From assembly GCA_035285865.1 (NCBI GenBank), contig JAYKHS010000010.1:1-64000 (forward strand): a stretch of 64,000 nt of DNA, read 5' to 3'. This document shows positions 13,440-32,154 of the stretch, one piece after another. Under the pieces are notes generated by a model, which did not search any database, was not told where the DNA came from, and saw only the letters and a list, made by a program, of their open reading frames with translations. The position numbers were made by a program, and so were the translations under genes. Within the stretch, counting starts at the first letter, position 1. Every line of letters begins with the position of its first letter. The stretch comes from Candidatus Sericytochromatia bacterium. Lineage in GTDB: Bacteria; Cyanobacteriota; Sericytochromatia; S15B-MN24; VGJW01.

Positions 13440-14392
13440 TGCTCCGCGCCGCGAAGAGCGGCCAGACTGCGGGCATCCAGGATGGCATTCGAGGGAAGCA
13501 CCATCAGGTTCTTGCCCTCCTTGAGCGCTGAGGCCATCTCCTTGGTCACCTCGAGGCGAACATACTGCTCGGGATTGATCCCGAGGGCCGCCCGGGCCGC
13601 CGCCTCGCCCTTGGCCCTGATGACCTTGGCATCGGCTTCTGCATGCGCCTCGATCTTGACCCGCTCGGCTTCCATGCGGGCCTTCTCCAGATTCTGGCGC
13701 GCCGTCAGGGTGTCCTGCTCGATCTGGGCCTTGCGCTCCACGGCAGTCTTGATGGCGGTCGGCAGCACGATGTTGCTGATGGCCACCGTCTCGACCAGCA
13801 CGTGATCGTCGCCGATGCCCTCGATCTGGACGTCCTTGTCCTTGAGGCCATCCTGCAGCACCCGCCTCATGAGGGCCGCCGCGCGCGCCCCACGGCTCTG
13901 GTAGACATCGACCACCCGGGACTGCGAGAAGGCGTAGCCCGCTGCTTGCTGGATGACCGGGATCCAGCGCGTCTCGACCAGCCCATGATCGCCCTCGAAC
14001 GGCTTCCGGTACCGCTGGAAAAGTTCGACCGCGGCACCGTTGTCCTCGCTGAGCTGGGGTTTGTACTGCACGCGGATGTCCACCATGATTTCCTGGCCCT
14101 CGGACGTGTTCACCTTGAAGTCGTCGAGGTTGATGCTGTCGACGATTCCGCTGGGAAACTCGTAGACCTTCTTGAAGAACCCCACGACGTGAAAGCCTGC
14201 ACCGAGCGGCCGGCCGGCCACCTTGCCGGTCAGCGTGTCGGTGACCACGCCGACATTGCCGACGGGGATGCTGGTGGTGAACCCGGCACCCATCGACACG
14301 AGCACTCCGAACAGGGCCAGCGCACCCAGTCCCATGGCCACCTTGGTCGCGGAACCCGCGATATCGGGATACTTGTCGCTGAGTTTGTTCAT
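13436..14392 (-). CDS. SPFH/prohibitin (band 7) domain protein
   Basis: N-terminal TM; IPVGNVGVV, GFHVV, TSEGQEIMVDIRVQY; C-terminal coiled coil AEADAKVIRAKGEA. Confidence 0.9.
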   Translation of the reverse strand: MNKLSDKYPDIAGSATKVAMGLGALALFGVLVSMGAGFTTSIPVGNVGVVTDTLTGKVAGRPLGAGFHVVGFFKKVYEFPSGIVDSINLDDFKVNTSEGQEIMVDIRVQYKPQLSEDNGAAVELFQRYRKPFEGDHGLVETRWIPVIQQAAGYAFSQSRVVDVYQSRGARAAALMRRVLQDGLKDKDVQIEGIGDDHVLVETVAISNIVLPTAIKTAVERKAQIEQDTLTARQNLEKARMEAERVKIEAHAEADAKVIRAKGEAAARAALGINPEQYVRLEVTKEMASALKEGKNLMVLPSNAILDARSLAALRGAEQ

Positions 14393-14485
14393 GGTGGGAA
14401 CAGTCTAACAGCAAGCGATCGGGAGCGTGCGATACACTTCGCCACGGAACCAGTCCCGACCCCCGGACCGTGCAGGAGGTGTGTC

Positions 14486-17614: not shown

Positions 17615-17797
17615 GGGGGGGAGCCCTCCTTGAGCACAGGCGATGTCAAGACCCTACCCGGGGCAACTCGGTTCTGAAACGTTACACCTTGTCCTCTCAT
17701 CAATCGGGCGTGGCAAGGGGGGTGGCCGACGTCAAGATGTCTTCGGAAGCGCCCGGATCGCGAGATTTAATGCGCCTTTGAACAAGTGCCGCCTTGC

Positions 17798-17818
17798 GTG
17801 GGGGATAGCCATGTCAGG
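17798..17818 (+). promoter_or_regulatory. Upstream motif GTGGGGGATAGCCATGTCAGG, shared with 6100-6120
   Basis: Direct sequence match. Confidence 0.45.
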
Positions 17819-17839
17819 TGTTATCGGGAGGTCGGAAAG

Positions 17840-18874
17840 ATGAATGTGGGACCGATTCGGCAGCGTACGGCACCTCTGGCCGGGCGTGCCCCGGTCGAGC
17901 AGCCCGTCCGGTCACTTGAGCCCTCGCCGCGACCCGGTACGGACGTGTTCCGTGCTGCGAACGCCACAGCGACACGGTCGGCGTCCACGTCTCCGCTGAG
18001 TGTCTCGGCTCCTGTTGCGCCTTCTGGCTCTGCCCTGGCATCGCCCGTCCAGGCCCTGCGGGCCATGACGTCCCAAGGAGCCGTCGATCTCGGCCAGACC
18101 TGGGGTGACTGGCAGGATCCTCACGCGGCGGAGTTCAACTTCGGCCACAAAGCCGTCGATGGCGAGCTTTGGCGCAAAGACGATCAAGGTCGGCTGGTCT
18201 GGGCCGACAACGGCAAGGCCATCAGCTGGGACCAGGTCAACCTGATGCCTGAACCCCAACGCCAGCGGTTCTTCGCCGAGGCGGGCATCCAGCCGGCCCC
18301 GCCCCGCGAAGTCATTGCGGGAAACCCGGCTTTGCGCGCTGCACCGGAGGGCTGGGTTGCCGGCAAGGGCTGGGCTCCGGGGCAGTCCCTCGAGGAGCGG
18401 CGAGCCGCCGAGGCCGCGTCTGCAGGACCCGTGACCGAGGGTGCTGCCCGGCAGATGGAGGCGATTGCCGATCTTGCGGAGCGAACCAATGGCGGCAAGC
18501 GCCCCCGCGGTCGCTGCTACGAGCACGTCTACAAACTGATCGAGCGGTCGGGCTACGGCAAGATGCCTGCCGTGGGCATTCCCGCCAGTCACTCGACCTA
18601 TGCCCGCAACTTTGCCGAGTATGCCAACGCCTCGGGCAATCTCGAGAAGCTGGGCCTGCGTAAGCTCGACATCACCAATCCCTACGACGCTCCGCGCGGA
18701 GCGATCGTGGTCGTCGGTCCCGGTACGCCGGGTACCAGTCATCCCACGGCGGGGGACATCGTGGTGTCATTGGGTGGTGGCCGCTTCATCAACGACGGCG
18801 AGATGGGCTACGGTGGGGCTGGTAACTTCCCGCCCGGGAACCGGCACGTCCTCGGCATCTACGTCCCGGCCTGA
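17840..18874 (+). CDS. Hypothetical protein with C-terminal CHAP/NlpC-P60-like amidase domain
   Basis: GRCYEHV, APRGAIVVV, HPTAGDIVV; disordered N-terminus; GGAGG RBS. Confidence 0.6.
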   Translation: MNVGPIRQRTAPLAGRAPVEQPVRSLEPSPRPGTDVFRAANATATRSASTSPLSVSAPVAPSGSALASPVQALRAMTSQGAVDLGQTWGDWQDPHAAEFNFGHKAVDGELWRKDDQGRLVWADNGKAISWDQVNLMPEPQRQRFFAEAGIQPAPPREVIAGNPALRAAPEGWVAGKGWAPGQSLEERRAAEAASAGPVTEGAARQMEAIADLAERTNGGKRPRGRCYEHVYKLIERSGYGKMPAVGIPASHSTYARNFAEYANASGNLEKLGLRKLDITNPYDAPRGAIVVVGPGTPGTSHPTAGDIVVSLGGGRFINDGEMGYGGAGNFPPGNRHVLGIYVPA

Positions 18875-18880
18875 GAGCGT

Positions 18881-19552
18881 TCACGGCGAGGAGTAGGCAT
18901 CGGACCAGCGCAGACTGGGTGCCAGAGTGCCATCGGTCAGCCATGTGCGCCTTTCTCCGGTTGCGAGCAGTCGCCTGCCGTCGGGCCGGACCGACAAGGC
19001 CCACTGGTGTGATCGGCCATCTGCCCAGCCCGTGAAGCGGATGCGCAGATGCTGCCCCGTGAATTCCGCGCGCAACCGGACCGGAGCTGCCCCGCGGTTC
19101 ACGAGGACCAGGTCCTGGCCGCCTTCCCAGAGCGTGGCATCGAGCCCGGGGGGCATCGAACGGACAGGCTGGCGGTGGCCGTGGCGGTCCAGCGGATCAA
19201 GGCCTGCCCGCAGCGCTGCAAGATGGACGGTCGAAGCCAACTGGCAAAGCCCGCCGCCAGCCGTGGGCACGCGCGCTTCGCCGAGGCGGGAAATCCCGGC
19301 CACGAATCCCCGGTGCCTTGTCCGCGCTCCCAGGCGAGCCGACAGCGACCACGGCACGTTCGGCTGGAGCGTTGCCCCGTCAATCAACGCGAGACCCCGA
19401 CTGAGGTTGATGCGTTCGGCTGACGATCGATCCGCCATGGTCGTCATGGCCGTGCCCACGACATCCGGGAAAGGTCTGAGCAACCACGCGGCTGCAGCCA
19501 GCATCGCTGCTGCCGCCGCAAACCTGCCACACACGGCCGGGCGTCGTTTCAC
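18881..19552 (-). CDS. VanW-like domain protein
   Basis: GGGLCQLASTVHLAAL, RHGH, PPGLDATL, DLVLVN; GTG overlaps upstream TGA. Confidence 0.88.
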   Translation of the reverse strand: MKRRPAVCGRFAAAAAMLAAAAWLLRPFPDVVGTAMTTMADRSSAERINLSRGLALIDGATLQPNVPWSLSARLGARTRHRGFVAGISRLGEARVPTAGGGLCQLASTVHLAALRAGLDPLDRHGHRQPVRSMPPGLDATLWEGGQDLVLVNRGAAPVRLRAEFTGQHLRIRFTGWADGRSHQWALSVRPDGRRLLATGERRTWLTDGTLAPSLRWSDAYSSP

Positions 19553-22500
19553 GGCTGGACAACCCGGGTCACGGGAGCCAGCGTCACGGCCCCCCCGCGT
19601 GCATAGAACGGGCGGAAACGGGTACCGCGGTGGACAACGCTGCCCGGCAGCAGGGCCCGCCAGTAGAAGCGGAACACGTGCTTGCCCTTGGGCAGGCTCT
19701 GGATCATGAGCACCACCCTGTCGTCCAAGACCTGCGTCCCGGACCAGACCGTCCCGTCGGGGTCGTGCCAGACTTCGGTTCCGGCGGGCAGGGGCTCCTC
19801 CAGCACGACGTGGCGGAGGGTCTGACTGGCCTCGAGTGTGACGATGGTGGCCATCGGTGCCCGAAGCGGGATGGCCGTCACATCCGGCATCCTGCTCCAA
19901 TTCGGGTGGTCCGGGCGGGCATCCTGGTTGTCGTAGAGGTGGCCCGTCAGGCCCCCGAAGAGTCCCTTCACCATGATTTCCGGCACGGCGACGACGCGGC
20001 GGGTCACGACTGGAGTCCCTGTCTGACGGTAGCCGTCAGGCGCCGGCCGCGAGACCAGCAGCCGAACCGGGACAGGAACCGAAGTGCTTGCGACGAGCGA
20101 CGCGGATTGGCCGGGACGGATTGCGACAGCCGTGAAGTCGGCCGACACCAGATCCATGGGTGCCGTGCGAGACCCGGAGGACAAGAAGCGGACGTGCGCC
20201 CCGGCAGCCTGCCCGGTGGCGGGATGCAAGTCGCGAAGGGTCCTTATGGTCTCCGCCGTCTCGAGCGTGGAGGTCCAGCCCTGCTCGCCTGACGCTCCGA
20301 CTTCCGCCAACAGGGCACCGAGACCGGCCTGGACCAGGGGATGGTCCGGAAGGTGTCGCGCCAGGGCGCGGACCGTCCGCGCCGTCGTCGGCACCTCCAG
20401 GTAGGCCCCCAGACTCTCGCGCATCGGGGCTGTCCAGTAGGCTTGATCACCCGTGGTCTGGGCCTTCTTGAGCACGGTCCGCAGCAACGCCTCTGCCGCG
20501 GGATGGCCGGGTCTGAGGGCAAGCAGGCTCCAGGCCCGTCCGTCGTCCGTCAGTCCGGCCTCACCGGGTTGCCAGCCGGGCAAGCGGTCTCCCCATCGAG
20601 CGAGCGTGGCCGCAACCATGGCGCGACCATCCGGCCCTGCCCCCAGGACGATTCCTCCGCGGACCTGCCACGTTCCATCCTGCTTGCGGCCCTTCCCTTG
20701 TAGCCAGTCGAGCCCGCGAACAATGGCCTCGGGGTCCATGGGCAGTCTGAGAGCCCGCACGTCCGCCAAGGTCGTCAGGACAATCGAGGTGACCTCGGGA
20801 TCACTCTCGTCGTCGGGAAACCAACCCCAGCCACCATCCGGATGTTGTCGGGCCATAAGGGTTGCGAGGATGTCCCCGGCACCAGCGCTATCGCCGGAAA
20901 GTGCCTTGCCGAGCAGGACCCCGGCCATCTGCTCGCTGCAGACATAGGGCTCTTCTGACAGCCGTCGCAGGGCAGCCGGCAGCACGGAAGCCGGATCGGG
21001 CACGCCCACGGCGACGGCCAGCAGGTGCTGGTCCGGCTCGGAGGGCTTCCACGTCCAGGCGCGACCCGGAACCAAACGGGTACGGACCACCGAGGTTTCG
21101 GCCGGATGAGCCGCGAGGATGGGCAAGGTCCTGACCAGGCCATCCGTCAGCCCTTTGCCGCGCCCACCAAAGGCAATCTCGGCAGATGCGGCAGGCGTCT
21201 CGGATGCAGTTGCCGGAACCTCAAGCCGCATCGGCACGACGACGGGGCGACCGGCCTCGGCTGTTCGGGGGCCATCCTGCTCCCCTTGCAACGTCACGCC
21301 GCGACCTCGCCACCACGGAGTTACCGTCTGCTCGCCGCCAAGTGTGGGCAGGAGCGTACCCACGACTTCGAGCCTGTCGCCAGCCACGAGGAAGGCTGGC
21401 AGACCCAGCCGGGCGACCAGGGGCTTGCGCGTCAGCAACTGCCCTCGGCCGAGTCCGCCCGCGGCGGAACGGGTCAACCCCAGAGCCGTCATGCGCCACG
21501 TCGTCAGATCCTCGGGCATGCGGAACCGGACGATGGCCTTCCCGGATTCATCCGTACGGATGCGCGGCAACCACGCCGCGGTGTCTTCGAAGCGGCTGCG
21601 GGTCTCGGGTGGCAGCAGGTCCTTGGGTGGGCCGGCCGTGAAGGACTCGGAAAAGGACAAGGCCGTCTGAACCGCATCCCATCGTGGTCCGAAGAAGGCG
21701 GGACGGGGATCCGGAGTCCTGTCGGGCTCGAGATCCAGCACGGCTTGGTCCACGACTGCCAGCGCCACGTCTGCCGCCGTCGGTCGACCCTCGTCATCGA
21801 GGGTCCGGACTTCCACCTCGGCCATCGCGCCGGGGAGCACCGTCTCGCTGCGCGGGGTCAACCGGACACCGAGTTCGGCCCCCTTGGGCACCAGATTGAG
21901 GTAGGCCAGGTCGTCCCGGCCCACCGTACCGAGGACACCGGTGACGCGGACGGCCACGTTCGGGGCCCAGTCGGGCCTCGCTTCGATCACCCACTCATGC
22001 TCCAACCTGCCCGCGGGAAGGCGCCGCACCTCGTGGATGTGGCGACCTTCGATCGTGACGAGCGGCGAAAGACGCGCATCGGGCAACCGAATCAGGACGG
22101 AGGTGGTGGCCCCCGGTCGAACGAAGGGATCGCGAACGCGGACTTCGATCGGCCCGTCGGTGGCATCCGACGCAGCCGTCTGGCCGCCCCCGACAATCCA
22201 GGCCCAGCCTGAGCTGCGGATGGTGTTTCCATCCGGATCGGTCAATACGGCGCGGACTTCGACGTCTCCTGCCTGCCGAAGCGGCGGAAGGTCGATGCGG
22301 AAATCCGGGGAGCCTTCGATCTGGAGGGGGATGGTCCTCTCCAAGGTGCGCACCTCGCGGGTTTCCGGGCCCTGCCTGACCCACTCGACCCGCTCGACCA
22401 CGACTTCACCCGACACGCGGCTGAGGCAAGGCTTGCCGTCCCAGGTCCGGAGACCGAGGTCGACGGCCCACGGCTGACTGTTTCGGATGACGCCGGGCGT

Positions 22501-24171
22501 TGTCACGGTAACAGCCACGCTGCCCTGCACCCGTTCCAGATGGCCGCTTCCCTTGACCGTCATTCGGCTCGGATCCACGATTTCGGCCTCGAAGGTCCAC
22601 GCCTCGTCCTCGAAGGGCCCGTCCGCATCCACGCGGACGATGGCCCTGCCTTCCGAGTCGGTCCGGCCCTCTCCTTCGGCACGCAACATGCCACGGGACC
22701 CTTCGTGGCTCCATCCGCTGCTCATGCCGTGAAACCACGACGGTCCCGCGACGGCGGCAGGCGCCTGCAGCGATTCGCTCCAGGCACGCCAAGTGAAGGG
22801 TATTTCGGCAAGGATACCCCCGGTCATGTCTCTGGCTTCGACTTCCATGACCAGAGGGCCGGGGCCGGCCTGCCGTGGCTTCGACGGCCGCAGCACGACC
22901 TTGGCCTCGGGCTTGCGATAGGCCGCCACGCGAAAGCCGTGCACGTCCACCTGCCGGTCGGGTCTGTCCGCTTCGGCGATGCGAATCTGCCACGGACCGG
23001 GTTCGGCTGCAGCAGGCAGGCGCATCGAACCGGCCACCGTGCCCCAGGCATCGACCGTGAGGGTCTGCTGGTCGACCTTCCGTCCGGCCGGTGACTCCAA
23101 GGTGGCCAGCAGGCGCGTGCCTTCCGGCGCCTCCCAGCGGCGACGATCCGGCTCTGCCTGCCTTCGGATCGCCGTCTTCCAGCCGACGACGTGTCCGGGC
23201 CTGTAGAGGGGTCTGTCCGACCACGTGATGGCCCGGAACGTGCCGGTCTCGACCTCGGGTTCCGCAAGGATCGCCTCTGCCAGATCGGCCCCCCGTTGCC
23301 CCTGGACCAACAACGCCCCCACGGGAGAGGCGCTCGCGCGCCAGAGTCCCTCGGCATCCGTCGTGCCCAGCGGGCGCTGCGTGCCCTTGCGTGGCGCACC
23401 GGATTCCTGCTGCACCCTGACCGCGGCCAAGGAGACCCCGGGCATCGGCAGGCCCGTGGTCATGTCCGTGGCCATGACCAGCAGTTGCCTGCTGTCCCGT
23501 TTGGCCACCAGGGCCAGCTTCGTGACGGTGAAGACGTGGCTGTCCCGTAGCGGTCGGACGGGTCGAACTACGTCCGGCAGTGGCTTTGCCGTGACCGTGA
23601 CGGAGTATCGCCCGGACTCCAGCAGCCCGGGCACGCGGATGCTGCGGATTCCCCATCCTTCCACGTCTTCGGCCTGTTCCACGAAGGGCCGGGTCCAACT
23701 GCCCAAGGGGATGCTTCGACTCCCTTCCAGCCGATGGAGCGTGAAGTCCATCTGCGCGATGGCAACGGCACGGGCCGCAAGGCGCACCGGTTCCCCGGCC
23801 GTGAACACCCGCTCGGGTGACGTCAGCGCGACTTCCGGGGCTCGTGGTTCGAGGGCCACGTCCGGCAGCCGAAAAGGTGTCTGCTCCTCGATGTAGGCTG
23901 GCGGGGAAATCCATCGGTCGACCCGGCCTCGGGACGAGACATGGACGTCATAGGAGCCTACCGGCAGGCGTTCACCCCGGCAGCGGCCATCTCGGCCAGT
24001 ACGCAGGACACGCCGTAGCGGGCCCTCCAGCGTGACGCTCGCTCCGGCCAGAGGTTTGCCCGCATCGTCCACCACCCGGCCGACGAAGGTGCCGGTCGGA
24101 CGCTCGGACAGCACGACGGCGACAAGCATCGCCACCACCAGTCCCCACGCACCCCAGACCTTGCCGTTCAT
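19549..24171 (-). CDS. Bacterial alpha-2-macroglobulin with N-terminal carboxypeptidase-regulatory-like domain
   Basis: SDRPLYRPG, FRVAAYRKPE, LAVVDQAVL, RSRFEDTAAW, PEDLTTWRMTA, thioester PYVCSEQ, QHPDGGWGWF, LEEPLPAG. Confidence 0.93.
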   Translation of the reverse strand: MNGKVWGAWGLVVAMLVAVVLSERPTGTFVGRVVDDAGKPLAGASVTLEGPLRRVLRTGRDGRCRGERLPVGSYDVHVSSRGRVDRWISPPAYIEEQTPFRLPDVALEPRAPEVALTSPERVFTAGEPVRLAARAVAIAQMDFTLHRLEGSRSIPLGSWTRPFVEQAEDVEGWGIRSIRVPGLLESGRYSVTVTAKPLPDVVRPVRPLRDSHVFTVTKLALVAKRDSRQLLVMATDMTTGLPMPGVSLAAVRVQQESGAPRKGTQRPLGTTDAEGLWRASASPVGALLVQGQRGADLAEAILAEPEVETGTFRAITWSDRPLYRPGHVVGWKTAIRRQAEPDRRRWEAPEGTRLLATLESPAGRKVDQQTLTVDAWGTVAGSMRLPAAAEPGPWQIRIAEADRPDRQVDVHGFRVAAYRKPEAKVVLRPSKPRQAGPGPLVMEVEARDMTGGILAEIPFTWRAWSESLQAPAAVAGPSWFHGMSSGWSHEGSRGMLRAEGEGRTDSEGRAIVRVDADGPFEDEAWTFEAEIVDPSRMTVKGSGHLERVQGSVAVTVTTPGVIRNSQPWAVDLGLRTWDGKPCLSRVSGEVVVERVEWVRQGPETREVRTLERTIPLQIEGSPDFRIDLPPLRQAGDVEVRAVLTDPDGNTIRSSGWAWIVGGGQTAASDATDGPIEVRVRDPFVRPGATTSVLIRLPDARLSPLVTIEGRHIHEVRRLPAGRLEHEWVIEARPDWAPNVAVRVTGVLGTVGRDDLAYLNLVPKGAELGVRLTPRSETVLPGAMAEVEVRTLDDEGRPTAADVALAVVDQAVLDLEPDRTPDPRPAFFGPRWDAVQTALSFSESFTAGPPKDLLPPETRSRFEDTAAWLPRIRTDESGKAIVRFRMPEDLTTWRMTALGLTRSAAGGLGRGQLLTRKPLVARLGLPAFLVAGDRLEVVGTLLPTLGGEQTVTPWWRGRGVTLQGEQDGPRTAEAGRPVVVPMRLEVPATASETPAASAEIAFGGRGKGLTDGLVRTLPILAAHPAETSVVRTRLVPGRAWTWKPSEPDQHLLAVAVGVPDPASVLPAALRRLSEEPYVCSEQMAGVLLGKALSGDSAGAGDILATLMARQHPDGGWGWFPDDESDPEVTSIVLTTLADVRALRLPMDPEAIVRGLDWLQGKGRKQDGTWQVRGGIVLGAGPDGRAMVAATLARWGDRLPGWQPGEAGLTDDGRAWSLLALRPGHPAAEALLRTVLKKAQTTGDQAYWTAPMRESLGAYLEVPTTARTVRALARHLPDHPLVQAGLGALLAEVGASGEQGWTSTLETAETIRTLRDLHPATGQAAGAHVRFLSSGSRTAPMDLVSADFTAVAIRPGQSASLVASTSVPVPVRLLVSRPAPDGYRQTGTPVVTRRVVAVPEIMVKGLFGGLTGHLYDNQDARPDHPNWSRMPDVTAIPLRAPMATIVTLEASQTLRHVVLEEPLPAGTEVWHDPDGTVWSGTQVLDDRVVLMIQSLPKGKHVFRFYWRALLPGSVVHRGTRFRPFYARGGAVTLAPVTRVVQP

Positions 24172-25505
24172 CCCTTGCCCTCCGACCACGCGGTTCGGGT
24201 CGTGAAGCGCCACAGCCGCCCTCGAGTCCTGCGACTCACTCCTGCCTTGTCCCTGCAGCGAAGCAGCATGCCCGTGGGGGTGCGCGCCTCGCCGGGGAGC
24301 ACCAGGGCCTGCCTTCCGGCCGCCACGAGCAGAAGGCCGTCCCGGGCCGGGGCGAGCCACTCGAGACGCGTCAATGGCAGCGGTCGATCAGGCAGCGAGA
24401 CCAGCAGCCCCAGGCTGCGCACCTCCCGACGTGTCAGCGGGGGAGTCCGCGGGTCGTGATCGAGGGAGCGGATGGCCTCCTGAGCGATCTGCTCACCAAG
24501 GCTCGGCCTGTCGGGATCGAGCCTCCCCCAGCAGGCTCGGGTCTTGCCTCCGAGCACCCAGCTGATGAAGACGCCGCCCGGCGGCAGGCTGCCGAGGTCC
24601 GCCGGCCGCAGCGGAGGTTTGCCGTCGAGATGACGCAGGGCCGACTCTCGAGCGTGCCTGGTGATTCTGGTTGCAAGGCTGTCCGGGAGCGGCACTGCGG
24701 CCGCTGGTGCACCGTGGCCGAGCAGCAGGCAAGGGACGGCCGCGGCCGTTGCCAAGCGTCGCAGGGTCGCCCAAGGCAGGTAGTGTCTCAGAATCTGCTG
24801 CCAGGTCCGACCGTTTTGCCCCATCACGGCTGCACCTTGCTGGCAGAGTCCCTTCCCATGGCCGCGGCCCGAGCCGGATGCCCGCCAGCCATCGCCCATG
24901 GCCGTGACCGAGAACAGGGTCGAGGGGACGGCGTGCCAGCCATGCCGGCGCCCCATCCGTACGGCGAACACATCGGCATCCTGCCAGGATCTGCCTCGGC
25001 GCACGCGCCACGCCCGGCCATCCGGCCCGACTTCCACCTGCAGAGGTCCCGCGTCCTGCAGGATCGGATCCAGCCACGCTGCGGGCCAGTGCCGCTCCCA
25101 GTGTTGTGCCCTGCAGGCCGGATCGAGGACCCCCGGAAACCCGGCAGGCCAGGCGGCGGTATGGCCCCCGCACGAAGCGTGACAAGCAGGGAATGCCGGC
25201 TTTGCGCCGTCCACAAGAATCCAGCCAGCCGTGCGGTTGGCCGCCTCCCTGGCCCCGGAGTCTGCAGTTGCTGTCCAGGCCATGCAATGTGTTCTCGCGC
25301 AAAGGGCTCCATCCGGATGTGCGCCACCTCGGGCAGCCAGCGTCCGGGCCAGCACGGCCTGGGCCTCGCGGGCCGCCTGCGCGGTGCCCGGCAGGGTCTC
25401 GGCCGCGACGACGCCGGCCACCCACGCCTCGACCGGAACCGATGTCCGCAAGGTTCCCTGCAGCAATCGGACCGAGGCAGGCAGTGGCGGCAGGCCGTCC
25501 ATCAC
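24168..25505 (-). CDS. SpoIID/LytB domain fused to an AMMECR1 domain
   Basis: VAGVVAAE, AQAVLART, LCARTHC, HASCGGHT, GRGHGKGLCQQGA, ILRHY; then GVFISW, RACWG, DPRTPPL, DGLLL, VLPGE. Confidence 0.82.
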   Translation of the reverse strand: MMDGLPPLPASVRLLQGTLRTSVPVEAWVAGVVAAETLPGTAQAAREAQAVLARTLAARGGAHPDGALCARTHCMAWTATADSGAREAANRTAGWILVDGAKPAFPACHASCGGHTAAWPAGFPGVLDPACRAQHWERHWPAAWLDPILQDAGPLQVEVGPDGRAWRVRRGRSWQDADVFAVRMGRRHGWHAVPSTLFSVTAMGDGWRASGSGRGHGKGLCQQGAAVMGQNGRTWQQILRHYLPWATLRRLATAAAVPCLLLGHGAPAAAVPLPDSLATRITRHARESALRHLDGKPPLRPADLGSLPPGGVFISWVLGGKTRACWGRLDPDRPSLGEQIAQEAIRSLDHDPRTPPLTRREVRSLGLLVSLPDRPLPLTRLEWLAPARDGLLLVAAGRQALVLPGEARTPTGMLLRCRDKAGVSRRTRGRLWRFTTRTAWSEGKG

Positions 25506-26302
25506 GATCCACTTCCCAGCTTTCGGCCGAGGATTCCGGCCACGCTGCGGGCCGTCTCGTAGCCCGTGCCACCTTGCACCCACGCCACGACCACCCAACG
25601 ACGGGTCCAGCCTGCGAACCAGCCGTCCCGGCCCCCGCGACCATCGCTGGCCGTACCGGTCTTGCCGGCGAGATAGCCCGCGCCGTACAGGCCGGCGGCC
25701 GTTCCCCGTCGCACCCCAAGCCGCAGGCCTTCCAGCACCGAGCGCATGGGTTCACCGCGAACACCGCTGTCCTGAGCGGCCAGGGCCATCATCATTCCGG
25801 CTACCTGAAGGGGCGTGGCTGTCAGGTTCCACGCTCTGCCGGAGGCCAGAAGACCGGCAGGGGCATCAGCGGGCAGATGGCCGGTCTCCTCCGCGTCGAG
25901 CCCGGAACCGGTCGCACGACCGAAGCCACACTGTTTCAGGCTCGCAAGCAACCGCGGCTTGCCCGCCTGCTCACCGAGGCGCGCTGCGGCAGCACTGCAG
26001 GATGCTGCGAGCAGGCCCTTCGTGTCGAGCCGCCCATGCCGCTTCCAGCAGGGAGGCTTGCCCTTTGGACCGTCACACGTCCACGAAAGCGCACCCGGGT
26101 CCCGAGCGAGGGCCAGCACCGCCGGTATCTTGGCCAGAGAACCCAGGGCGTGTGCCGCGCCTGCGTGGCCCTGCCCGGCGATTGCCGCGATGCGACCCGA
26201 GTCCCGGGCGCGGATGACGAGGCAACCGGCCCGACCCAGCAAGGCTGCCTCGGCAGCCTGTTGGACCATCACGACCGGATGCGGGACGTCAGACAGCAGC
26301 AT
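25502..26302 (-). CDS. Penicillin-binding transpeptidase domain protein (stand-alone)
   Basis: GSLAK (SxxK), SCS (degenerate SxN), TPLQVA, GKTGT, GWFAG; start uncertain. Confidence 0.8.
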   Translation of the reverse strand: MLLSDVPHPVVMVQQAAEAALLGRAGCLVIRARDSGRIAAIAGQGHAGAAHALGSLAKIPAVLALARDPGALSWTCDGPKGKPPCWKRHGRLDTKGLLAASCSAAAARLGEQAGKPRLLASLKQCGFGRATGSGLDAEETGHLPADAPAGLLASGRAWNLTATPLQVAGMMMALAAQDSGVRGEPMRSVLEGLRLGVRRGTAAGLYGAGYLAGKTGTASDGRGGRDGWFAGWTRRWVVVAWVQGGTGYETARSVAGILGRKLGSGS

Positions 26303-27623
26303 CGGCTGGCTCCGCAGCCTGATGCCAGGACCAGGCCGCAAGCACGATGGCGACCGATGCGAGGGCGAGGCGCCACGGCCGTTCCAGGCCTCCCAGCGTG
26401 ACCATGGCCGGACCGGCGAGCGTCGCAACGGCGACCAGGCCCGTCAGGAGCCCCACATCGCGAGGTCCTGACGGGGCCCCGATGCCGGAGCCCAGGAGCA
26501 GGGCCATGGCAACCAGTCCCATCAGCGCGGCGCCGGCTGCCTCCAGGCCCAGGACCGATCCGACGGCAACGATCGCCAGCCAGGCAGCCACAGGGCGCAT
26601 CAGGCGGCGGATGTCCGAGGGCGCTTCCCCGATCCCGCCGGCACCGGGTATCGCCAGAGCGGCCATGCCTGCAAGGAGGCCCGCAAGGGCATAGGGATGG
26701 GTCAGGTCGACCCCTTCGCGACCCAGCCACGAACGATCCAGATGCTCCTGCACCATCAGGCGCGTCCACCACGCTCCGGCGACCAGCAGGCTGGCACCCT
26801 CGATTCCGGTGGCGACCATCGCCGCCAACCCCGTGGCAAGGGCGGCGGCACCGCCCAGACGAACCAGCAGCAGCATCACGCCTCCCGCGACCACCAACCT
26901 TGCCACGCGCAGAGCCGCTGCCTGTCCCTCGCCGGCAAGCCCGAGGGCACCTGCCGACAGGGTGCCCACGACCGGTGCCCAGCAGGCAGCAGGCGGCATC
27001 TCCAGGAGCCAGAGGCCCACGGGTGCCGTCAACGCCGCCAGCGCGACCGGACGCGAGATGGCGGCACCCCGCGCAGGCAGGCGATCATCCAGCCATACGG
27101 CGGCGGCAACCGTCAGCATCACCCACGCCCAGCCCAGCCCGTCGGCCGTGAACCTGCCGAGGACGTGCGCCGCCGCACCCGTGGCTGCAAGTCCGATGGC
27201 GAGGCGCGCAAGGACCGCGGTCGGTACCATGGCGGCCGCCGAGGCCGCCGGGAGCACCGCTGCGGCAAAGGCATAGCCCGACTCGATATCCGGTCGACCG
27301 GCCCATGGCGCCAGAACGGCCACAGGCAGGGTCGACAGCAAGGCCGCGGCATGCAGCCCGCCTCGCGCCGAGGCCACGGGCAGCAGCATGACGAGTCCGA
27401 GCGCCAAGGCCCCCGAGGCCCAGCCACCCACCGCGAAGAACAGCTTCGGACCGAAGGGAGCCAGCATTGCGGGCAGCAGGCCCAGGCCGGCTGCCGTGAG
27501 CAGCATCCGGACCGGAGGCCGCTCACCCCCGCCAGCGGCGCCTCGCCAGACCTTGACCAGCCCGGAGGCCACCAGCGTGAGGGCGAGGATGCGTAGCCAA
27601 GGCAGCCAATCTACCGGGGTCAC
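26289..27623 (-). CDS. Polytopic integral membrane protein
   Basis: More than 10 hydrophobic segments; AGGAGG RBS before GTG. Confidence 0.75.
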   Translation of the reverse strand: MTPVDWLPWLRILALTLVASGLVKVWRGAAGGGERPPVRMLLTAAGLGLLPAMLAPFGPKLFFAVGGWASGALALGLVMLLPVASARGGLHAAALLSTLPVAVLAPWAGRPDIESGYAFAAAVLPAASAAAMVPTAVLARLAIGLAATGAAAHVLGRFTADGLGWAWVMLTVAAAVWLDDRLPARGAAISRPVALAALTAPVGLWLLEMPPAACWAPVVGTLSAGALGLAGEGQAAALRVARLVVAGGVMLLLVRLGGAAALATGLAAMVATGIEGASLLVAGAWWTRLMVQEHLDRSWLGREGVDLTHPYALAGLLAGMAALAIPGAGGIGEAPSDIRRLMRPVAAWLAIVAVGSVLGLEAAGAALMGLVAMALLLGSGIGAPSGPRDVGLLTGLVAVATLAGPAMVTLGGLERPWRLALASVAIVLAAWSWHQAAEPADAAV

Positions 27624-27680
27624 GGCTGGCCCTCCTGAAGTGCGGGACGGCGACCATGCAACCCTCGCCGGGTGGACGCG

Positions 27681-30059
27681 TCAAGGCCAAGGATGACGAG
27701 GATAGCGCCGCTTCAGCTCGCGCTTGATTTCCGGATAGGCCGTGTGCCAGAAACGGTCCAGATCGTCCGTCTTCTGAACGGTACGCATGTTGGGGGCGAG
27801 GATATCGAAGCGCAGGGGCAGGCGGCCCTCGAAGATGCGCTGCGGCCCCGTCAGACCGATCAGGTCGCCCAGGCGAGCCGAAAGCTCGGCTTTCCCGTCC
27901 TCATCGATCGTGATCCGACCATGGCGTCCGTTCGGCAGGGGCCAACGCGCGGGCGCGAGGCGCTGCAGACGCTGGGCCAGCCACGGACCCAGCAATTCGT
28001 CGATGACGCGCCGCAGGGCCCCGGGATCGAGATCCTCGGGTCGTCGCAGCCCTGCACAAGCCTCGTGCAGAATGAGCGGCCAGTCCTCGTCAAGATCCGG
28101 CCAGCCCTCGTCGGGTAGCAACCGCGCGGCGAGGCGGACACGCCGCAGCCACTGCACAAGATCGGCGTCCTCGAGTGCGGCAAGCCTGAGGCCACGATTC
28201 ATGATCGCTTCGGCGAGGGCCTGCTGGACCTCCGATGGTTGCCACGCCGAGGGCGGCAGCGGTTCATGACGCAACAGGAGACCCACGAGTCGGACGGCCC
28301 GCTGCTGCACGACCCTGCCATGGCGCTCATCCCATCCCGTGACGACTGCCGTCTCGAGCGCCTCCGGCCACCAGGACGCTTTGGCCTCCAGCCATGCATC
28401 GCAGCGCGTGACGCGCTGGCCTGTGCCATCCATCGGCTGCCGGTGCAAGAGCAGCACGAGGTCGGGACTCCCTTCCGGCAAGAGGACGCGCTCGTCGGCA
28501 GCATCGCGATGGGCCCTTTCCGCCCTTGCGGCAAGGGCATCCGGCAGGGCCTCGAGCCAGGCAATCGCCACGGCGCGTCTGGCCTCGTCCCCGGGCACGG
28601 CAGAGTTCTCCCACGGGCCGGACTCCGCGTGATGAAGCCCGCAAATGCGGCCAATCTGGCGGAGCGTCCGGGCGGAGTCCCCGAAGCGAGACGGGGCACG
28701 CAAGAGCTCCCAGGCATCCTGAAGCAGGTCCCCCCCGGGATGCCCCGGTTCATGCCTGAGCACGGCGGTCGCCGCGAGCAGCCAGGTCCAGGGGGAATCG
28801 TCCCGGACTGCAGAGGCGACCACGGCAGCACCTTCCGGGTCCAAGGGCAGTTGGGCCATCTTCTTGCCCTGGTCGGTGAGGGCTCCGGACGCGTCCGTCG
28901 CACCGAGGGCACGCAGCCGTGCCGTTGCCTGCTGGACGACGGCCTCGGGCAAGGGCGTCGGGAGTTCCTCGCGGATGCCGAGCTGTCGCAGGCGCAAGAC
29001 CGTCTGCAAAGGATTCTCCACCAGGATCGCGGGATGGGGGCGCTCGTCCATCGAGGCCGTGAACTCGGGGCTCCAGAGTCGGATGCATCGGCCTGGGGCC
29101 GTCCGACCTGCGCGGCCTGCGCGCTGGATGGCGTTGGCGCGGGTGATCCACCCCAGCCTCAGTGCGGCAGGTTGGCCCGGGGCTCCGGGCATGGTCCTGC
29201 GGGCCTTGCCGCAGTCGATGACCGCCGTGACGCCCGGAATCGTCAGCGAGGTTTCGGCGACGTTGGTGGCGAGGATGACCGAGCGCTCCCTCGAGGGTAC
29301 CTCCAGCGCCTCCCGCTGCAATTCGAGGGGCATGGCGCCGTGCAGGCGCAGCAGCTTGATGCCGGCATCCCGGACAGCCGGGCCCAATATTTCCGCGACG
29401 CGTTCGATTTCCCCTTTGCCAGGCAGGAACACCAGCACCGAGCCATCGAGGCCTTCGGCCCTGAGGTCGCGAAAGGCGCGCGCGACCTGGTCACCAAGGG
29501 ATTCGCGGGCCATCGGCGACTGGTGGCGCATGGACACGGGATGGGCCGTTCCGGGAACCTCGATGACAGGCGCACCGCCCATCCATCGAGCCACTTCGTC
29601 GGCCTCGATCGTCGCCGACATGACCAGCAACCGCGGACCGTGCGGTCGACTCAAGGCCCAGGCCGCGGCCAGGTCGTTCTCCACCGTCCGCTCGTGCCAC
29701 TCGTCCAGCACCAGAATGTCCGGTTGCGTCTGGCGTTCCGACTGCAACAGCTCCTGCAGGTAGACGCCAGCGGTCGCGAACAGCAGGCGCGTCCGAGGAC
29801 CTGCCTTGCGATCATGGCGTACGGCATAGCCCACCTCATCGCCCAGAGTGCGGCCTTCGGCGGCCCTGCTGGCCAGCATGCGCGCCGCGACGCGCCGCGG
29901 TTGCAAGACCGTCACGCGGTGGCCGAGGCTCATGAGATGGGCGGGAACCAAGGTGGACTTGCCGGTGCCGGGTGGGGCGACCAGCACGAGCCGATCACGG
30001 TCCAGCAGGGTCTTCGTGATTGGGTCGAGGTATTCCCGGACAGGCAGCATCACCGGCAT
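27681..30059 (-). CDS. hrpB: ATP-dependent helicase HrpB
   Basis: APPGTGKST, QPRRVAAR, DEWHER, MSAT, LATNVAETSLTI, QRAGRAGR, C-terminal DLxxFW...YPRHPWP. Confidence 0.92.
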   Translation of the reverse strand: MPVMLPVREYLDPITKTLLDRDRLVLVAPPGTGKSTLVPAHLMSLGHRVTVLQPRRVAARMLASRAAEGRTLGDEVGYAVRHDRKAGPRTRLLFATAGVYLQELLQSERQTQPDILVLDEWHERTVENDLAAAWALSRPHGPRLLVMSATIEADEVARWMGGAPVIEVPGTAHPVSMRHQSPMARESLGDQVARAFRDLRAEGLDGSVLVFLPGKGEIERVAEILGPAVRDAGIKLLRLHGAMPLELQREALEVPSRERSVILATNVAETSLTIPGVTAVIDCGKARRTMPGAPGQPAALRLGWITRANAIQRAGRAGRTAPGRCIRLWSPEFTASMDERPHPAILVENPLQTVLRLRQLGIREELPTPLPEAVVQQATARLRALGATDASGALTDQGKKMAQLPLDPEGAAVVASAVRDDSPWTWLLAATAVLRHEPGHPGGDLLQDAWELLRAPSRFGDSARTLRQIGRICGLHHAESGPWENSAVPGDEARRAVAIAWLEALPDALAARAERAHRDAADERVLLPEGSPDLVLLLHRQPMDGTGQRVTRCDAWLEAKASWWPEALETAVVTGWDERHGRVVQQRAVRLVGLLLRHEPLPPSAWQPSEVQQALAEAIMNRGLRLAALEDADLVQWLRRVRLAARLLPDEGWPDLDEDWPLILHEACAGLRRPEDLDPGALRRVIDELLGPWLAQRLQRLAPARWPLPNGRHGRITIDEDGKAELSARLGDLIGLTGPQRIFEGRLPLRFDILAPNMRTVQKTDDLDRFWHTAYPEIKRELKRRYPRHPWP

Positions 30060-30082: not shown

Positions 30083-30958
30083 TCAGGCCCCGATGGAGAT
30101 CAGGCCGTGCGTGCCGCGGGCCTTCTGCGCGGCAAGAAACTGCGCGGTCGTGATGACGATGGGGCCCTTGCGGTTGGCCGGATCGTTCAGATACACCTTG
30201 TTTCCTTCGACCTTCCAGACGACGGCGTAGTGGCCGGTCCGCGTGCCCGGGCGCAGGTAGGTGGCGCAGACGTGGGCGATGACGAGGCGGCCCTGGGCCA
30301 ACTCCGCCCGCAGCTTGTCCAGCCCACCCCACACCACGCGCGTGTTCAGTCCGTAGCTGGCTGCGCCCTTCTCCAACTGCTTGAAACTGGTGCCCTTGAA
30401 TTCGTCGCTCTGCCGGGTGCCCGCGCCCATGCGGCGCCGGGTCTCCTCGATGGCGGCGTTGGCGGATTCCGGCGTGACTTCGACCTTGCCGAAGGCGCGG
30501 GCAATCATCGTCAAGCTCGTGGGTCCGCAGTTGCCGTTGCCCGGCGCGTCCTCGCGCGAGTTGAACACTCCGCGGTTCTGCGAGATGAACCAGCTTTCGG
30601 GATTGGCCGGAATCCCTCTCGGAGTGGTCCGGGGCAACGGAGGGGGAGCCGGTTGCTTCTGGACAGGCGGTGGCGAGACGGGCATCGGGGCACCCGGCAT
30701 CGGCGCCAGAACGGGCGGACTCGGGATCGGGTTGCTGACCAGGGTGTCCAACTGCGCCAGCAGGTCGGCATACGGTGCGGGAGCGAATACGGTGGTCACG
30801 GCAGGTTGCCAGGAGGACGGGGCGTGGCCAATCCACGCATCCTGCGCGACAGGCAGAACCGGTGCCCACGGACTGCTCGACGGGGGTATGGGACCCGGTC
30901 CGACCGGCACCAAGGCGACCGGCACGAAGCCACCACCAAAGGACGGTACGGTCGGCAT
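30083..30958 (-). CDS. C39-like cysteine peptidase with Pro-rich N-terminus
   Basis: ISQ...NCGPTSLTM, GHYAVV, YLNDPA. Confidence 0.82.
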   Translation of the reverse strand: MPTVPSFGGGFVPVALVPVGPGPIPPSSSPWAPVLPVAQDAWIGHAPSSWQPAVTTVFAPAPYADLLAQLDTLVSNPIPSPPVLAPMPGAPMPVSPPPVQKQPAPPPLPRTTPRGIPANPESWFISQNRGVFNSREDAPGNGNCGPTSLTMIARAFGKVEVTPESANAAIEETRRRMGAGTRQSDEFKGTSFKQLEKGAASYGLNTRVVWGGLDKLRAELAQGRLVIAHVCATYLRPGTRTGHYAVVWKVEGNKVYLNDPANRKGPIVITTAQFLAAQKARGTHGLISIGA

Positions 30959-31047: not shown

Positions 31048-32154
31048 TCAGAACACCCATTGACCGAGCGTCCAGTTCCGGGACCACGCGAGCGTGGCCA
31101 TGAAGGACAGCGCCACGAGCACCGCACACGTTCTGGGGCGCCCGGCCAGTCCCGGTGCAACCAGCCACCAGAGGGCCGGCGAGCCGTAGAGGTAGCGGTC
31201 GCCGCTTTCGGTCCATCCCGTCGCCAGGACCAGCAACAGGTGGCTTCCTGCTGCCGCCGCCGCTCCTGGCTGCGCCTGCAGATGCCTCAGGACCACGGCG
31301 AGCGTGCCGTACGCCATGACCGCCTTGAGCAGGCCTTGGTGGCCCATGGGCCCGAGGCATCCCAGGCTGAGCGGTCCCGCCCAGCCCCAGCCGCCCGGGG
31401 GCCGACCGTCATGCCAGTGCCGCTGGGCATGCAGGAAGGCCAACGCGTCGCCGAACTCCAGATACTGCCAGGTCATGACACAGGCAAGGCCAAGCGCCGG
31501 CGCCATCAGCACCGCCCATCTGAACCATCCGCGCACTCCGAACGCCATCCCCCCGAGCGCCAGGCCCGACACACGAAGGCCGCCGCTCAACGCGAGGGCC
31601 AACAAGGTGGTCGGGCTCGGCCGGGATGCGCTGGCGAGCGTGTAAAGCGCCACCGTCCCGCAGGCCAGGAAGAGCGGTTCGGTATAGGCGATGCGTCCGG
31701 TGATGCCGTGGGGCCACATGGCCACGGCGAGCACGGCCAGGAGTCCGGCCCGGACTCCATGACTGCGAGACACCCATCTGTGGAGCAAGACCAACCACAC
31801 CCACTGGCACGCGACCGGAAGCATGAAGCCTGCCGCATCGGGCGGAACCCCGGCGTGCATGGCGGCCCGAAGCAGGAGGGGCCAGAGCGGCAGGAATGCG
31901 GTGCCCTGCGGGACCTGTCCGTCCGTGGGCGCATCCCAGCCCTCCTGCGCAAGGCCCAGATACCAGCCACCATCCCAGCCCCACGGCCAGGCCAATGGCG
32001 CGACCGCCGTCCCGGCCGTGGGCCACAGCCATGCGGTCAGCACACCAAGAGCCGTTGCGCTCCAGCCAGCGGCAACCGCCATCAGGGCTGCGAGCACCGA
32101 TGGGCGCCAGGAGCGAGCAAAGGGCTCCGCTTGTTCCACCCCGGGTGCCGCCAT
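31048..32154 (-). CDS. GT-C mannosyltransferase family (PIG-V-like) membrane protein
   Basis: WDGGWYLGLAQEGW, AFLPLWPLL, YTEPLFL, FGDALAFLHAQRHW. Confidence 0.82.
   Translation of the reverse strand: MAAPGVEQAEPFARSWRPSVLAALMAVAAGWSATALGVLTAWLWPTAGTAVAPLAWPWGWDGGWYLGLAQEGWDAPTDGQVPQGTAFLPLWPLLLRAAMHAGVPPDAAGFMLPVACQWVWLVLLHRWVSRSHGVRAGLLAVLAVAMWPHGITGRIAYTEPLFLACGTVALYTLASASRPSPTTLLALALSGGLRVSGLALGGMAFGVRGWFRWAVLMAPALGLACVMTWQYLEFGDALAFLHAQRHWHDGRPPGGWGWAGPLSLGCLGPMGHQGLLKAVMAYGTLAVVLRHLQAQPGAAAAAGSHLLLVLATGWTESGDRYLYGSPALWWLVAPGLAGRPRTCAVLVALSFMATLAWSRNWTLGQWVF

Follow-up and report, generated by a model that had tools for sequence, protein, structure and literature searches.

Bacterial alpha-2-macroglobulins (A2M) are known in two settings, one with PBP1c and the other with the Mag/Yfa proteins. 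The bait region of CxEQ macroglobulins is cut and the attacking protease is then trapped covalently, and the type I pair of A2M and PBP1c is the origin of the idea that trapping is coupled to wall repair (PMC5764988), a hypothesis with little direct support so far. In the type II system, MagB anchors and stabilises MagD; MagD shields against some peptidoglycan-targeting T6SS effectors (PMC12663445), and MagE is located in the cytoplasm (PMC3735191).

A third, independently assembled setting was found in the window, the whole 64,000-nucleotide stretch analysed here, from Candidatus Sericytochromatia bacterium, a non-photosynthetic relative of cyanobacteria (Table 1). The five co-oriented, coupled genes reported by the first-pass annotation were all recovered as minus-strand ORFs, together with their stop/start overlaps (GTGA at 19549-19552, ATGA at 24168-24171, GTGA at 25502-25505 and 14 nt at 26289-26302). 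Pfam domains above the cut-off were Transpeptidase, SpoIID with AMMECR1, CarboxypepD_reg with MG2, A2M_BRD, A2M and bMG10, and VanW in the four downstream genes, respectively, and the membrane protein had no above-cut-off Pfam match. Within the genus, purifying selection acts on all five genes, with dN/dS of 0.16-0.23 between G001 and G003 (HrpB, 0.16) and of 0.18-0.33 for pairs including this genome, in which dS is near saturation. Moreover, the conservation beyond this genome on which the first reading depended was borne out by a gene-neighbourhood check, which showed these genes, in unchanged order, in other families of the class. This recurrence and the purifying selection on the five genes indicate that the operon is more than a chance arrangement. 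Its usual form has six genes: the SpoIID-AMMECR1 fusion is a local, genus-level variant, and AMMECR1 is a separate gene with its own signal peptide in most relatives.

Table 1. Features of the macroglobulin operon in the window
Feature	Position	Strand	Length	Details
Shine-Dalgarno-like AGGAGG	27631..27636	(-)		7 nt ahead of first start codon, GTG
Membrane protein ORF, pseudo-M-PPase	26289..27623	(-)	444 aa	AF2 model, structure comparison, motif counts
Transpeptidase ORF, stand-alone PBP2/SpoVD-like domain (mini-PBP)	25502..26302	(-)	266 aa	S55-L-A-K58, S101-C-S, K214-T-G
SpoIID-AMMECR1 fusion ORF	24168..25505	(-)	445 aa	
SpoIID/LytB lytic-transglycosylase-like domain	24756..25505	(-)		fusion residues 1-250; PF08486 and TIGR02669 over cut-off
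Hydrophobic linker ending A-A-A	24696..24755	(-)		fusion residues 251-270
AMMECR1 domain, exported subtype	24168..24695	(-)		fusion residues 271-445; R-A-C325-W-G, D351-x-R, LPGE
Macroglobulin ORF, thioester alpha-2-macroglobulin	19549..24171	(-)	1540 aa	TM anchor, CarboxypepD_reg, MG domains, bait region, TED, bMG10
CSEQ thioester motif	20929..20940	(-)		A2M residues 1078-1081
VanW ORF, VanW-domain protein	18881..19552	(-)	223 aa	Pfam VanW; one N-terminal membrane helix, then RPF

The locus is not a standard yfa/pbpC locus. The PBP1c model TIGR02073 reached its cut-off in three control genomes but in 0/5 genomes here, no pbpC gene was present in the loci read, and DUF2138, DUF1175, DUF2300 and DUF2135 were each absent from 5/5 genomes (83-100% complete; E. 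coli as positive control). We take these domains to represent MagB/YfaA, MagC/YfaT, MagE/YfaQ and MagA/F with YfaP, respectively. The distinct architecture claimed at first sight thus stands, as a conserved cluster that is neither yfhM-pbpC nor yfa/Mag, and envelope defence or repair is a function that we still infer.

We compared 77 genomes, 43 with and 34 without the membrane protein. VanW occurs in 40/43 of the former and 0/34 of the latter, this type of macroglobulin in 41/43, exported-type AMMECR1 in 39/43, and the stand-alone transpeptidase in 39/43 against 0/18 negatives tested; the genomes being related, these counts are not independent trials and represent about four genus-level lineages of absence plus whole families. 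No macroglobulin of any kind was found in the eight closest genomes lacking the membrane protein. The association also holds in family f37, where the genes are scattered. In a third clade, known from metagenome loci with another gene order, a partner was present in 24/43 loci (13/14 of those of at least 15 kb) and all five partners in 7 of 43. By this computation, related bacteria retain or lose the parts of the system jointly, pointing to an undescribed envelope defence-and-repair machine.

Partial and extra sets also occur: four core genes without the mini-PBP in G301 and G306, the membrane protein alone in G006 (64% complete), a second, unlinked membrane-protein copy in G004, and, in G309, nothing of the set but an AMMECR1 remnant of 67 aa in the syntenic position. 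The system is missing from the near-complete genomes G005 (98%), G302 and G309 (both 99% complete), indicating that its genes are dispensable. The two gene halves lie at separate loci in family f4, and TP-SpoIID is transcribed away from AMMECR1-A2M-VanW in the metagenome clade, as might be expected if two unrelated modules, one of the membrane protein, mini-PBP and SpoIID and the other of AMMECR1, macroglobulin and VanW, were adjacent by chance. However, the membrane gene adjoins VanW in that clade, the SpoIID-AMMECR1 fusion of genera g1 and g8 spans the supposed boundary, and all parts are co-lost even where unlinked; chance adjacency is thus very unlikely and largely refuted.

The membrane component that the first-pass annotation had called unknown is present, but it is no longer unknown, since structure prediction assigns it to the membrane-pyrophosphatase (M-PPase) fold. 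An AF2 model based on 121 sequences (pLDDT 89.8) has the 16-helix two-ring M-PPase fold, and comparison with VIA gave Z scores of 23.8 to 5gpj (410 residues aligned, rmsd 3.0) and 21.9 to 8b37, with the next unrelated fold at 7.2. M-PPases also filled every rank, down to 21, among the Foldseek matches listed, and 8/8 extracted weak whole-genome matches of the membrane-protein profile were intact M-PPases. Similarity at the sequence level is weak: profile-profile likeness to M-PPases had a probability of 17-68% over TM13-15 only, Pfam H_PPase (PF03030) touched 3/99 homologues, all below the cut-off, and not the window protein, and a PDB sequence search gave no match. With 2/121 family members against 0/58 control membrane ORFs at ≥5 bits, the PPase profile barely separates the family from controls.

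In M-PPases, the hydrolytic-centre, coupling-funnel and ion-gate residues lie on TM5, 6, 11, 12, 15 and 16 (PMC6882861). Five of six catalytic motifs occurred in 0/121 homologues and the sixth (DxxGN) in 1/121, compared with 9/9 for intact PPases; judged by these counts, the membrane protein lacks the PPi-hydrolysing apparatus, the motifs of the hydrolytic centre, the coupling funnel and the ion gate all being gone. M-PPases are obligate dimers (PMC6882861), with homodimer contacts through TM10/13/15, and an intact M-PPase is encoded on another contig of this genome and in 24/25 class genomes carrying the membrane protein, which could then be a regulatory or heterodimer subunit of that enzyme. 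Such a role is extremely improbable, because intact M-PPase occurs in 0/23 genomes of f37, 18 of which keep the membrane protein, and G005 has the PPase without the membrane protein; as a general function it is refuted by f37.

Conservation in the family is instead found at R255 (100%), G258, R288 (98% basic), Q292 (95%), G304, H309 (87%), Y311, E361 and R418 (98% basic), in loops that face outward according to M-PPase topology, and in the motifs TH[PA]Y and HxEP (H 87-88%). The polar residues among these gather where helices of the inner ring and their neighbours end, which in M-PPases is the exit-channel side (PMC6882861), and the whole multi-helix barrel is kept, which is much for a mere anchor. 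Instead of being a passive scaffold, the protein might hence serve the same system as a channel, a transporter or a sensor that binds a lipid carrier, a peptide or a piece of the wall on the reused exit-channel side and sends this ligand or a signal through the membrane. We regard this as unlikely: the family alignment has no conserved acidic or basic column in the middle of the membrane or towards the cytoplasm, the loci read show no conserved association of the cluster with a cytoplasmic partner or regulator, and the outer motifs persist in a clade whose members, at ~345 aa, are without the N-terminal helices. We give less credence to a new kind of enzyme that would modify the macroglobulin of its own system, peptidoglycan or a lipid-linked precursor, and in which the outward His/Glu/Arg cluster would work with the AMMECR1 Cys as acyl or group carrier. 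The two conserved motifs and this Cys, a proposed catalytic group carrier (PMC2034487) that is invariant in nine exported copies aligned, would suit such an enzyme, but the HxEP His is Gly (Gly359 here) in 4/4 genomes of this genus despite purifying selection on the gene, and no donor-supplying gene is linked.

The macroglobulin retains the intact CSEQ motif noted at first reading, and CxEQ is present in 44/45 macroglobulin ORFs longer than 1000 aa, the lone exception being a split gene. Its N-terminal transmembrane anchor is followed by E-x-P-x-G, with neither Cys nor lipobox, and the lipobox pattern was found near the anchor in 0/32 macroglobulins. Its best PDB matches were 4u48 and 5a42 (E ~1e-75).

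The mini-PBP consists of the transpeptidase domain only, without the anchor and pedestal of class B PBPs, and its NCBIfam scores are far below cut-off. SxxK and K[TS]G are retained (each 10/10 aligned transpeptidases), the second motif is SCS here and SCN in many relatives, and the invariant C76/C85/H89/C102 presumably form a Zn site. The SEDS partner of class B PBPs was not encountered, the adjoining membrane protein having the M-PPase fold, and the cluster contains no glycan polymerase. The SpoIID domain, aligned with 4rwr and 5i1t via a relative, retains E36, which we take to be the catalytic Glu position of the family, as well as H63/C69/H73/C74; the Glu is present in all aligned rows, and the GHGxG motif of SpoIID/LytB was also found. 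SpoIID enzymes cut glycan strands, and SxxK PBP domains form or trim 4-3 links. In this genus the mini-PBP has no signal peptide, which by eye is Sec- or Tat-like in relatives, and SpoIID lacks both the signal peptide and the N-terminal beta-domain of its relatives.

The linker that follows SpoIID resembles a signal peptide left over from a formerly separate AMMECR1 gene, and no conserved internal start codon was found in it across four genomes of the genus. The domain behind it has the AMMECR1 fold (TM 0.76 to 1vaj) and scores below the TIGR04335 cut-off. Other genomes have a separate gene for the ordinary cytoplasmic type of AMMECR1 (LRGCIG; 4/4 checked), and no Memo or radical-SAM genes lie beside the exported form in annotated loci.

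VanW domains form 3-3 peptidoglycan cross-links via a Cys/His/Asp triad (PMC11348318). The VanW protein here belongs to this L,D-transpeptidase family and is predicted to share its activity: C103/H126/D138, positions assigned from conservation, are kept, with Cys in 44/44, His in 44/44 and the Asp motif in 43/44 relatives. Across the 77 genomes searched, it is a single-copy protein that goes with this system.

On balance, we think it probable, if only slightly so, that the six components make up a single defence-and-repair machine, seated in the inner membrane and facing the periplasm, on a pseudo-enzyme scaffold. The membrane-anchored macroglobulin would neutralise proteases or peptidoglycan hydrolases entering the periplasm, SpoIID would remove damaged glycan, the mini-PBP would cross-link or trim pentapeptides to the tetrapeptides required by VanW, and VanW would seal the gap with 3-3 links. 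The pseudo-PPase may be a non-pumping scaffold, probably dimeric like its ancestor, whose conserved outer face (TM10/12/13/14-15 loops) would dock the macroglobulin and VanW by their single-helix anchors, a possible counterpart of the role of MagB for MagD. The weakest step of the proposed mechanism is that of the exported AMMECR1, whose cleft presents a reactive Cys and whose most likely target, to be acted on or protected, is the thioester of the macroglobulin or else a peptide substrate. The missing signal peptides of mini-PBP and SpoIID fit periplasmic repair badly; their site of action may be the cytoplasm, where MagE has been reported, or they may leave it together with a partner.

The module could also serve local wall remodelling for a trans-envelope structure such as type IV pili, the thioester tethering a self protein. 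Local remodelling of the wall typically involves SpoIID-like and PBP-like enzymes, and the f37 macroglobulin gene follows pilB-pilT-pilC co-directionally in 9/10 loci read, the tenth ending at the gene. Nevertheless, such a function is improbable, given that genes for pili or secretion are lacking next to the cluster in Sericytochromatia loci and among the annotated neighbours in the metagenome clade, and that the genes are dispensable in near-complete genomes.

For the defence-and-repair machine, the presence of a thioester macroglobulin with a lytic transglycosylase and D,D- and L,D-transpeptidases makes the trap-plus-repair hypothesis testable by defined catalytic mutants, and the complete genomes of f37 with and without the system offer a natural comparison set. 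The VanW proteins of this phylum gain a likely role, and AMMECR1, a conserved family so far tied to RNA modification, gains an exported subfamily in a cell-envelope context. More speculatively, and with considerable doubt, the membrane protein may found a non-catalytic branch of the M-PPase fold, repurposed early in cyanobacteria and their non-photosynthetic relatives as a signalling or transport hub, and be the hub of a third class of macroglobulin system, coupling trapping via itself and the exported AMMECR1 enzyme to on-site 4-3/3-3 re-cross-linking. Our literature search found no published description of the system or of such a branch, and no precedent for a pseudo-enzyme derived by reduction from the fold of a primary ion pump.

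Compared with M-PPases (HppA, Vr-PPase 5gpj, Tm-PPase, Pa-PPase 8b37), the membrane protein shares the helical fold over almost the whole chain, but it is ~240 residues shorter than the intact PPase of this genome, the cytoplasmic halves are gone, the outer face has become the conserved part and the C-terminus bears an additional helix. VanW has its domain, membrane anchor and conserved Cys/His/Asp in common with C. difficile Ldt4/Ldt5 but is minimal, without PG4 or G5 domains. AMMECR1 shares the fold, catalytic-position Cys and D-x-R with AmmeMemoRadiSam protein A, from which it differs by a signal peptide or membrane helix and by the R[GA]CWG and LPGE motifs. As in type I (E. coli yfhM/ECAM-pbpC, Salmonella Sa-A2M), a CxEQ macroglobulin lies beside a penicillin-binding-protein gene; different from type I, this partner is a transpeptidase-only PBP2/SpoVD-like domain rather than the class A PBP1c, the anchor is a membrane helix rather than a lipobox, and the system has another four partners. 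Type II Mag/Yfa (P. aeruginosa magABCDEF, E. coli yfaA-T-S-Q-P) and the present system both are six-gene macroglobulin envelope operons with a SpoIID-domain gene, YfaQ/MagE in type II, and a membrane organiser, which is MagB there and a polytopic M-PPase fold here; in contrast to MagD, the macroglobulin here retains CxEQ, and VanW and AMMECR1 are additions without a Mag counterpart.

The five open reading frames described in the first-pass annotation, together with their overlaps and the CSEQ motif of the macroglobulin, were all found as reported, and each gene is present in one copy in the window's genome, which is 83% complete. The two nearest relatives that carry names are MAGs of Candidatus Sericytochromatia / Tanganyikabacteria. 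Purifying selection acts on all five operon genes in the genus, and a decaying operon there is ruled out by dN/dS. A promoter and terminator scan performed no better than chance. The upstream genes for HrpB and a C39 peptidase, as well as the gene downstream of VanW, were rejected as parts of the system, their linkage to the operon being restricted to the genus. In the convergent 362-aa frame beside VanW, a C-terminal Cys...His pattern is, to our eye, reminiscent of papain-like wall hydrolases.

Operon genes and neighbouring reading frames in the window
Feature	Position	Strand	Match or observation
Membrane protein (444 aa)	26289-27623	-	no Pfam match
Mini-PBP (stand-alone transpeptidase domain)	25502-26302	-	Pfam Transpeptidase
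SpoIID-AMMECR1 fusion	24168-25505	-	Pfam SpoIID and AMMECR1
Macroglobulin	19549-24171	-	Pfam: complete bacterial macroglobulin domain set and N-terminal CarboxypepD_reg
VanW protein	18881-19552	-	Pfam VanW
362-aa ORF	17786-18874	+	convergent with VanW; 73% identity in genome G003; no match in Pfam, NCBIfam or PDB sequences
HrpB helicase	27681-30059	-	directly upstream of operon, co-oriented
C39-like peptidase	30083-30958	-	Pro-rich N-terminus; upstream, co-oriented
Candidate PIG-V-like membrane glycosyltransferase	31048-32154	-	no Pfam match; assigned by eye
Dam-like methylase	32199-33065	+	assigned by eye
ORF with adenine-DNA-methylase-like C-terminal part	12207-14414	-	assigned by eye

A neighbourhood comparison, which the first-pass annotation had suggested as a check, recovered the same genes in the same order (membrane protein, mini-PBP, SpoIID, AMMECR1, macroglobulin, VanW) in families f1, f2, f3 and f5, with some insertions or contig breaks, and other arrangements elsewhere: the order is broken into two triplets in f4, the genes are dispersed over the genome in f37, a family of the same phylum outside the class, and yet another order is found in a third clade; those of its members that carry names are of Obscuribacterales/Melainabacteria type, and the metagenome loci were assigned to it by likeness. 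At least one partner accompanies the membrane protein gene in 24 of the 43 metagenome loci of this clade (all five in 7), and in 13 of the 14 loci that span 15 kb or more. Across 301 sampled genomes of the phylum, the membrane protein had strong matches only in this class and in f37; one further member is named from Candidatus Saganbacteria.

Among 77 genomes, the membrane protein is present in 43 and absent from 34. VanW was found in 40/43 genomes with it vs 0/34 without, and the stand-alone transpeptidase in 39/43 vs 0/18 negatives searched. The operon-type macroglobulin occurs in 41 of the 43, missing from G002, whose contig breaks off within the operon, and from G006, which is 64% complete; it occurs in none of the 8 closest genomes lacking the membrane protein, the search having covered 28 of the 34 membrane-protein-negative genomes. 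Macroglobulins of f6, f7 and f39 are longer and score more weakly than the operon type. Exported-type AMMECR1 is present in 39/43 genomes, three of these being truncated at contig ends; the f6 and f7 matches are shorter and weaker, and 4/4 such genes checked are of cytoplasmic type. Of the system, genome G309 retains no more than a remnant of AMMECR1, 67 aa long, in the syntenic position. SpoIID was left out of these counts because of its paralogues. Because the genomes are kin, these numbers reflect joint retention in several lineages and cannot be converted into a probability. With the broken order in f4 set beside this co-retention, we consider it very improbable that the genes constitute two unrelated modules.

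Several associations were seen at particular loci. The AMMECR1-macroglobulin-VanW triplet of f4 (L024-L026, L029, L030) adjoins glycosyltransferase, O-antigen-ligase-like and lipid A acyltransferase-like genes, with a PMT-like gene too in several loci. In f37, the macroglobulin gene lies directly 3' of pilB-pilT-pilC on the same strand in 9/10 loci (L055-L064). As read from sequence, an ECF sigma/anti-sigma-like pair precedes the f37 VanW gene in G271, and in G301 this gene is preceded by an ECF-like sigma gene; in G313 it is the system's SpoIID that lies 5' of an ECF-like sigma gene (loci L073, L071 and L128); no such association was seen at the 4 other VanW loci read. In the Obscuribacterales-type clade, an unannotated protein of ~320 aa with an N-terminal membrane helix and CxCP adjoins the membrane protein gene in 25/43 loci, mostly divergently (for example L080:942-1853 and L099:8637-9575). 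It is absent from the window's genome and is a possible seventh component in that clade.

The membrane protein was assigned by its fold. A profile search seeded with 13 homologues from the class returned 127 representatives, and an AF2 model built from a 121-sequence alignment reached a pLDDT of 89.8 and a pTM of 0.90. Against 48,161 PDB representatives, the best structural match of the model was the membrane pyrophosphatase (M-PPase) 5gpj (Z 23.8, rmsd 3.0, 410 residues), followed by the M-PPase 8b37 (Z 21.9), with the next match at Z 7.2; Foldseek likewise gave only M-PPases among the matches listed through rank 21 (best E 7.6e-4). A SEDS/RodA identity was rejected, as the protein had no Pfam or NCBIfam match and has the M-PPase fold. 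Weak sequence evidence, independent of the fold, is consistent with this kinship: intact M-PPases accounted for 8/8 ORFs excised at the profile's faint whole-genome matches (E 1e-4 to 1e-5), Pfam H_PPase touched 3/99 family members below its cut-off, and profile-profile alignment to M-PPase covered TM13-15 with a probability of 17-68%, the cytoplasmic arm being shortened by a 39-residue deletion. The PPase profile itself barely discriminates, giving at least 5 bits in 2/121 members vs 0/58 control membrane ORFs. Comparing single sequences with the PPase encoded in the same genome gave nothing significant, and profile searches of the PDB no genuine match. In the ESM Atlas, the Atlas's own low-confidence model had no fold match, and the best feature match, a lead only, was an unnamed 481-aa cluster whose commonest phylum is Armatimonadota. 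No long fused forms (1039-2965 aa) of the membrane protein were found, which is weak evidence.

The protein passes the fold test for an M-PPase and fails the catalytic one. With catalytic residues defined according to PMC6882861, the motifs of TM5, 6, 11, 15 and 16 are kept in 0/121 members vs 9/9 intact PPases, and DxxGN in 1/121 vs 9/9. Conserved in the family instead are R255, G258, R288, Q292, G304, H309, Y311, HxEP and R418, which, if the M-PPase topology holds, would sit in outward-facing loops; loop Lys/Arg counts agree with this topology except in the last loop, and the grouping of helices was our own provisional one. A role as a subunit of a PPase has almost no credence, since f37 keeps the membrane protein (18/23 genomes) without any M-PPase (0/23), which excludes a heterodimer with the native PPase and argues that the protein is not a native-pump subunit. 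The stripped M-PPase, or pseudo-PPase, may be a component new in kind. That it is a transporter or sensor is unlikely, and a new membrane enzyme is more doubtful still.

Variants of the pseudo-PPase include a clade of ~345 aa lacking the N-terminal helices (P0045, P0060 and 16 related proteins), for which the ESM Atlas returned nothing useful. Copies without partner genes lie beside an isocitrate dehydrogenase gene in G004 (a second copy, L040:9305-10780) and G006 (L045:1320-2843).

The mini-PBP is nearest to SpoVD and PBP2 (compared through a relative) and keeps SxxK and K[TS]G in 10/10 aligned sequences, as it does four Cys/His residues that we take to be a likely zinc site; its middle motif is SCS in the window and SCN in many relatives. 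In SpoIID, which has PDB relatives, the Glu at the catalytic position is present in each aligned row. Judged by eye, the mini-PBP and SpoIID of this genus have no signal peptide, whereas their relatives show Sec- or twin-arginine-like signals. AMMECR1 is a separate gene in the 15 other class genomes with loci read, with a signal-like N-terminal segment wherever the start was readable. The SpoIID-AMMECR1 fusion occurs in the 4 genomes of this genus (g1), where a hydrophobic segment is retained as linker; G013, from genus g8, has the fusion with no such linker. A FastTree tree groups the two genera, with long-branch attraction flagged, and is compatible with one or two fusion origins. An internal AMMECR1 start was rejected, no start codon being conserved across the 4 genomes. 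The AMMECR1 domain adopts the fold of its family, a relative's model giving TM 0.76 to 1vaj, and has the Cys that PMC2034487 proposed as catalytic. VanW domains are L,D-transpeptidases using a Cys/His/Asp triad, according to PMC11348318; the window's protein has C103/H126/D138, and among 44 distinct relatives Cys and His are kept in 44/44 and the Asp motif in 43/44. Sequence comparison with solved structures found no relative of VanW, only spurious matches to designed proteins.

The macroglobulin is anchored by an N-terminal membrane helix, has no lipobox, and keeps CxEQ in 44/45 long relatives; at L112:10385-15477, on a metagenome contig, a stop codon splits the gene. On balance, we favour a membrane-anchored protease trap in which the macroglobulin would be coupled to peptidoglycan patch repair, with the pseudo-PPase as a putative organising scaffold. 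The trapping and enzyme chemistries follow from family membership, and we infer a physical complex, the scaffold role and a role for AMMECR1. Precedents are the trap-plus-repair hypothesis for A2M-PBP1c and the anchoring of MagD by MagB (PMC5764988, PMC3735191), and the protection that MagD gives from certain T6SS effectors aimed at the wall (PMC12663445). The main difficulties for the trap-repair reading are the missing signal peptides and loss of His359 in this genus, and that the system contains no glycan polymerase. We regard a wall-remodelling role serving an appendage as improbable.

Among the full-text matches listed, most subscription papers being outside their scope, no description of the system or its novel parts was found. 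The proposal of a distinct architecture, other than a standard yfa/pbpC locus, was borne out. Different from type I A2M-PBP1c loci, this system has neither PBP1c nor a lipobox; different from type II Mag/Yfa operons, its macroglobulin has CxEQ, and 0/4 Mag/Yfa partner families were found in 5 genomes. The system resembles the known macroglobulin loci in its working, yet belongs to neither type.
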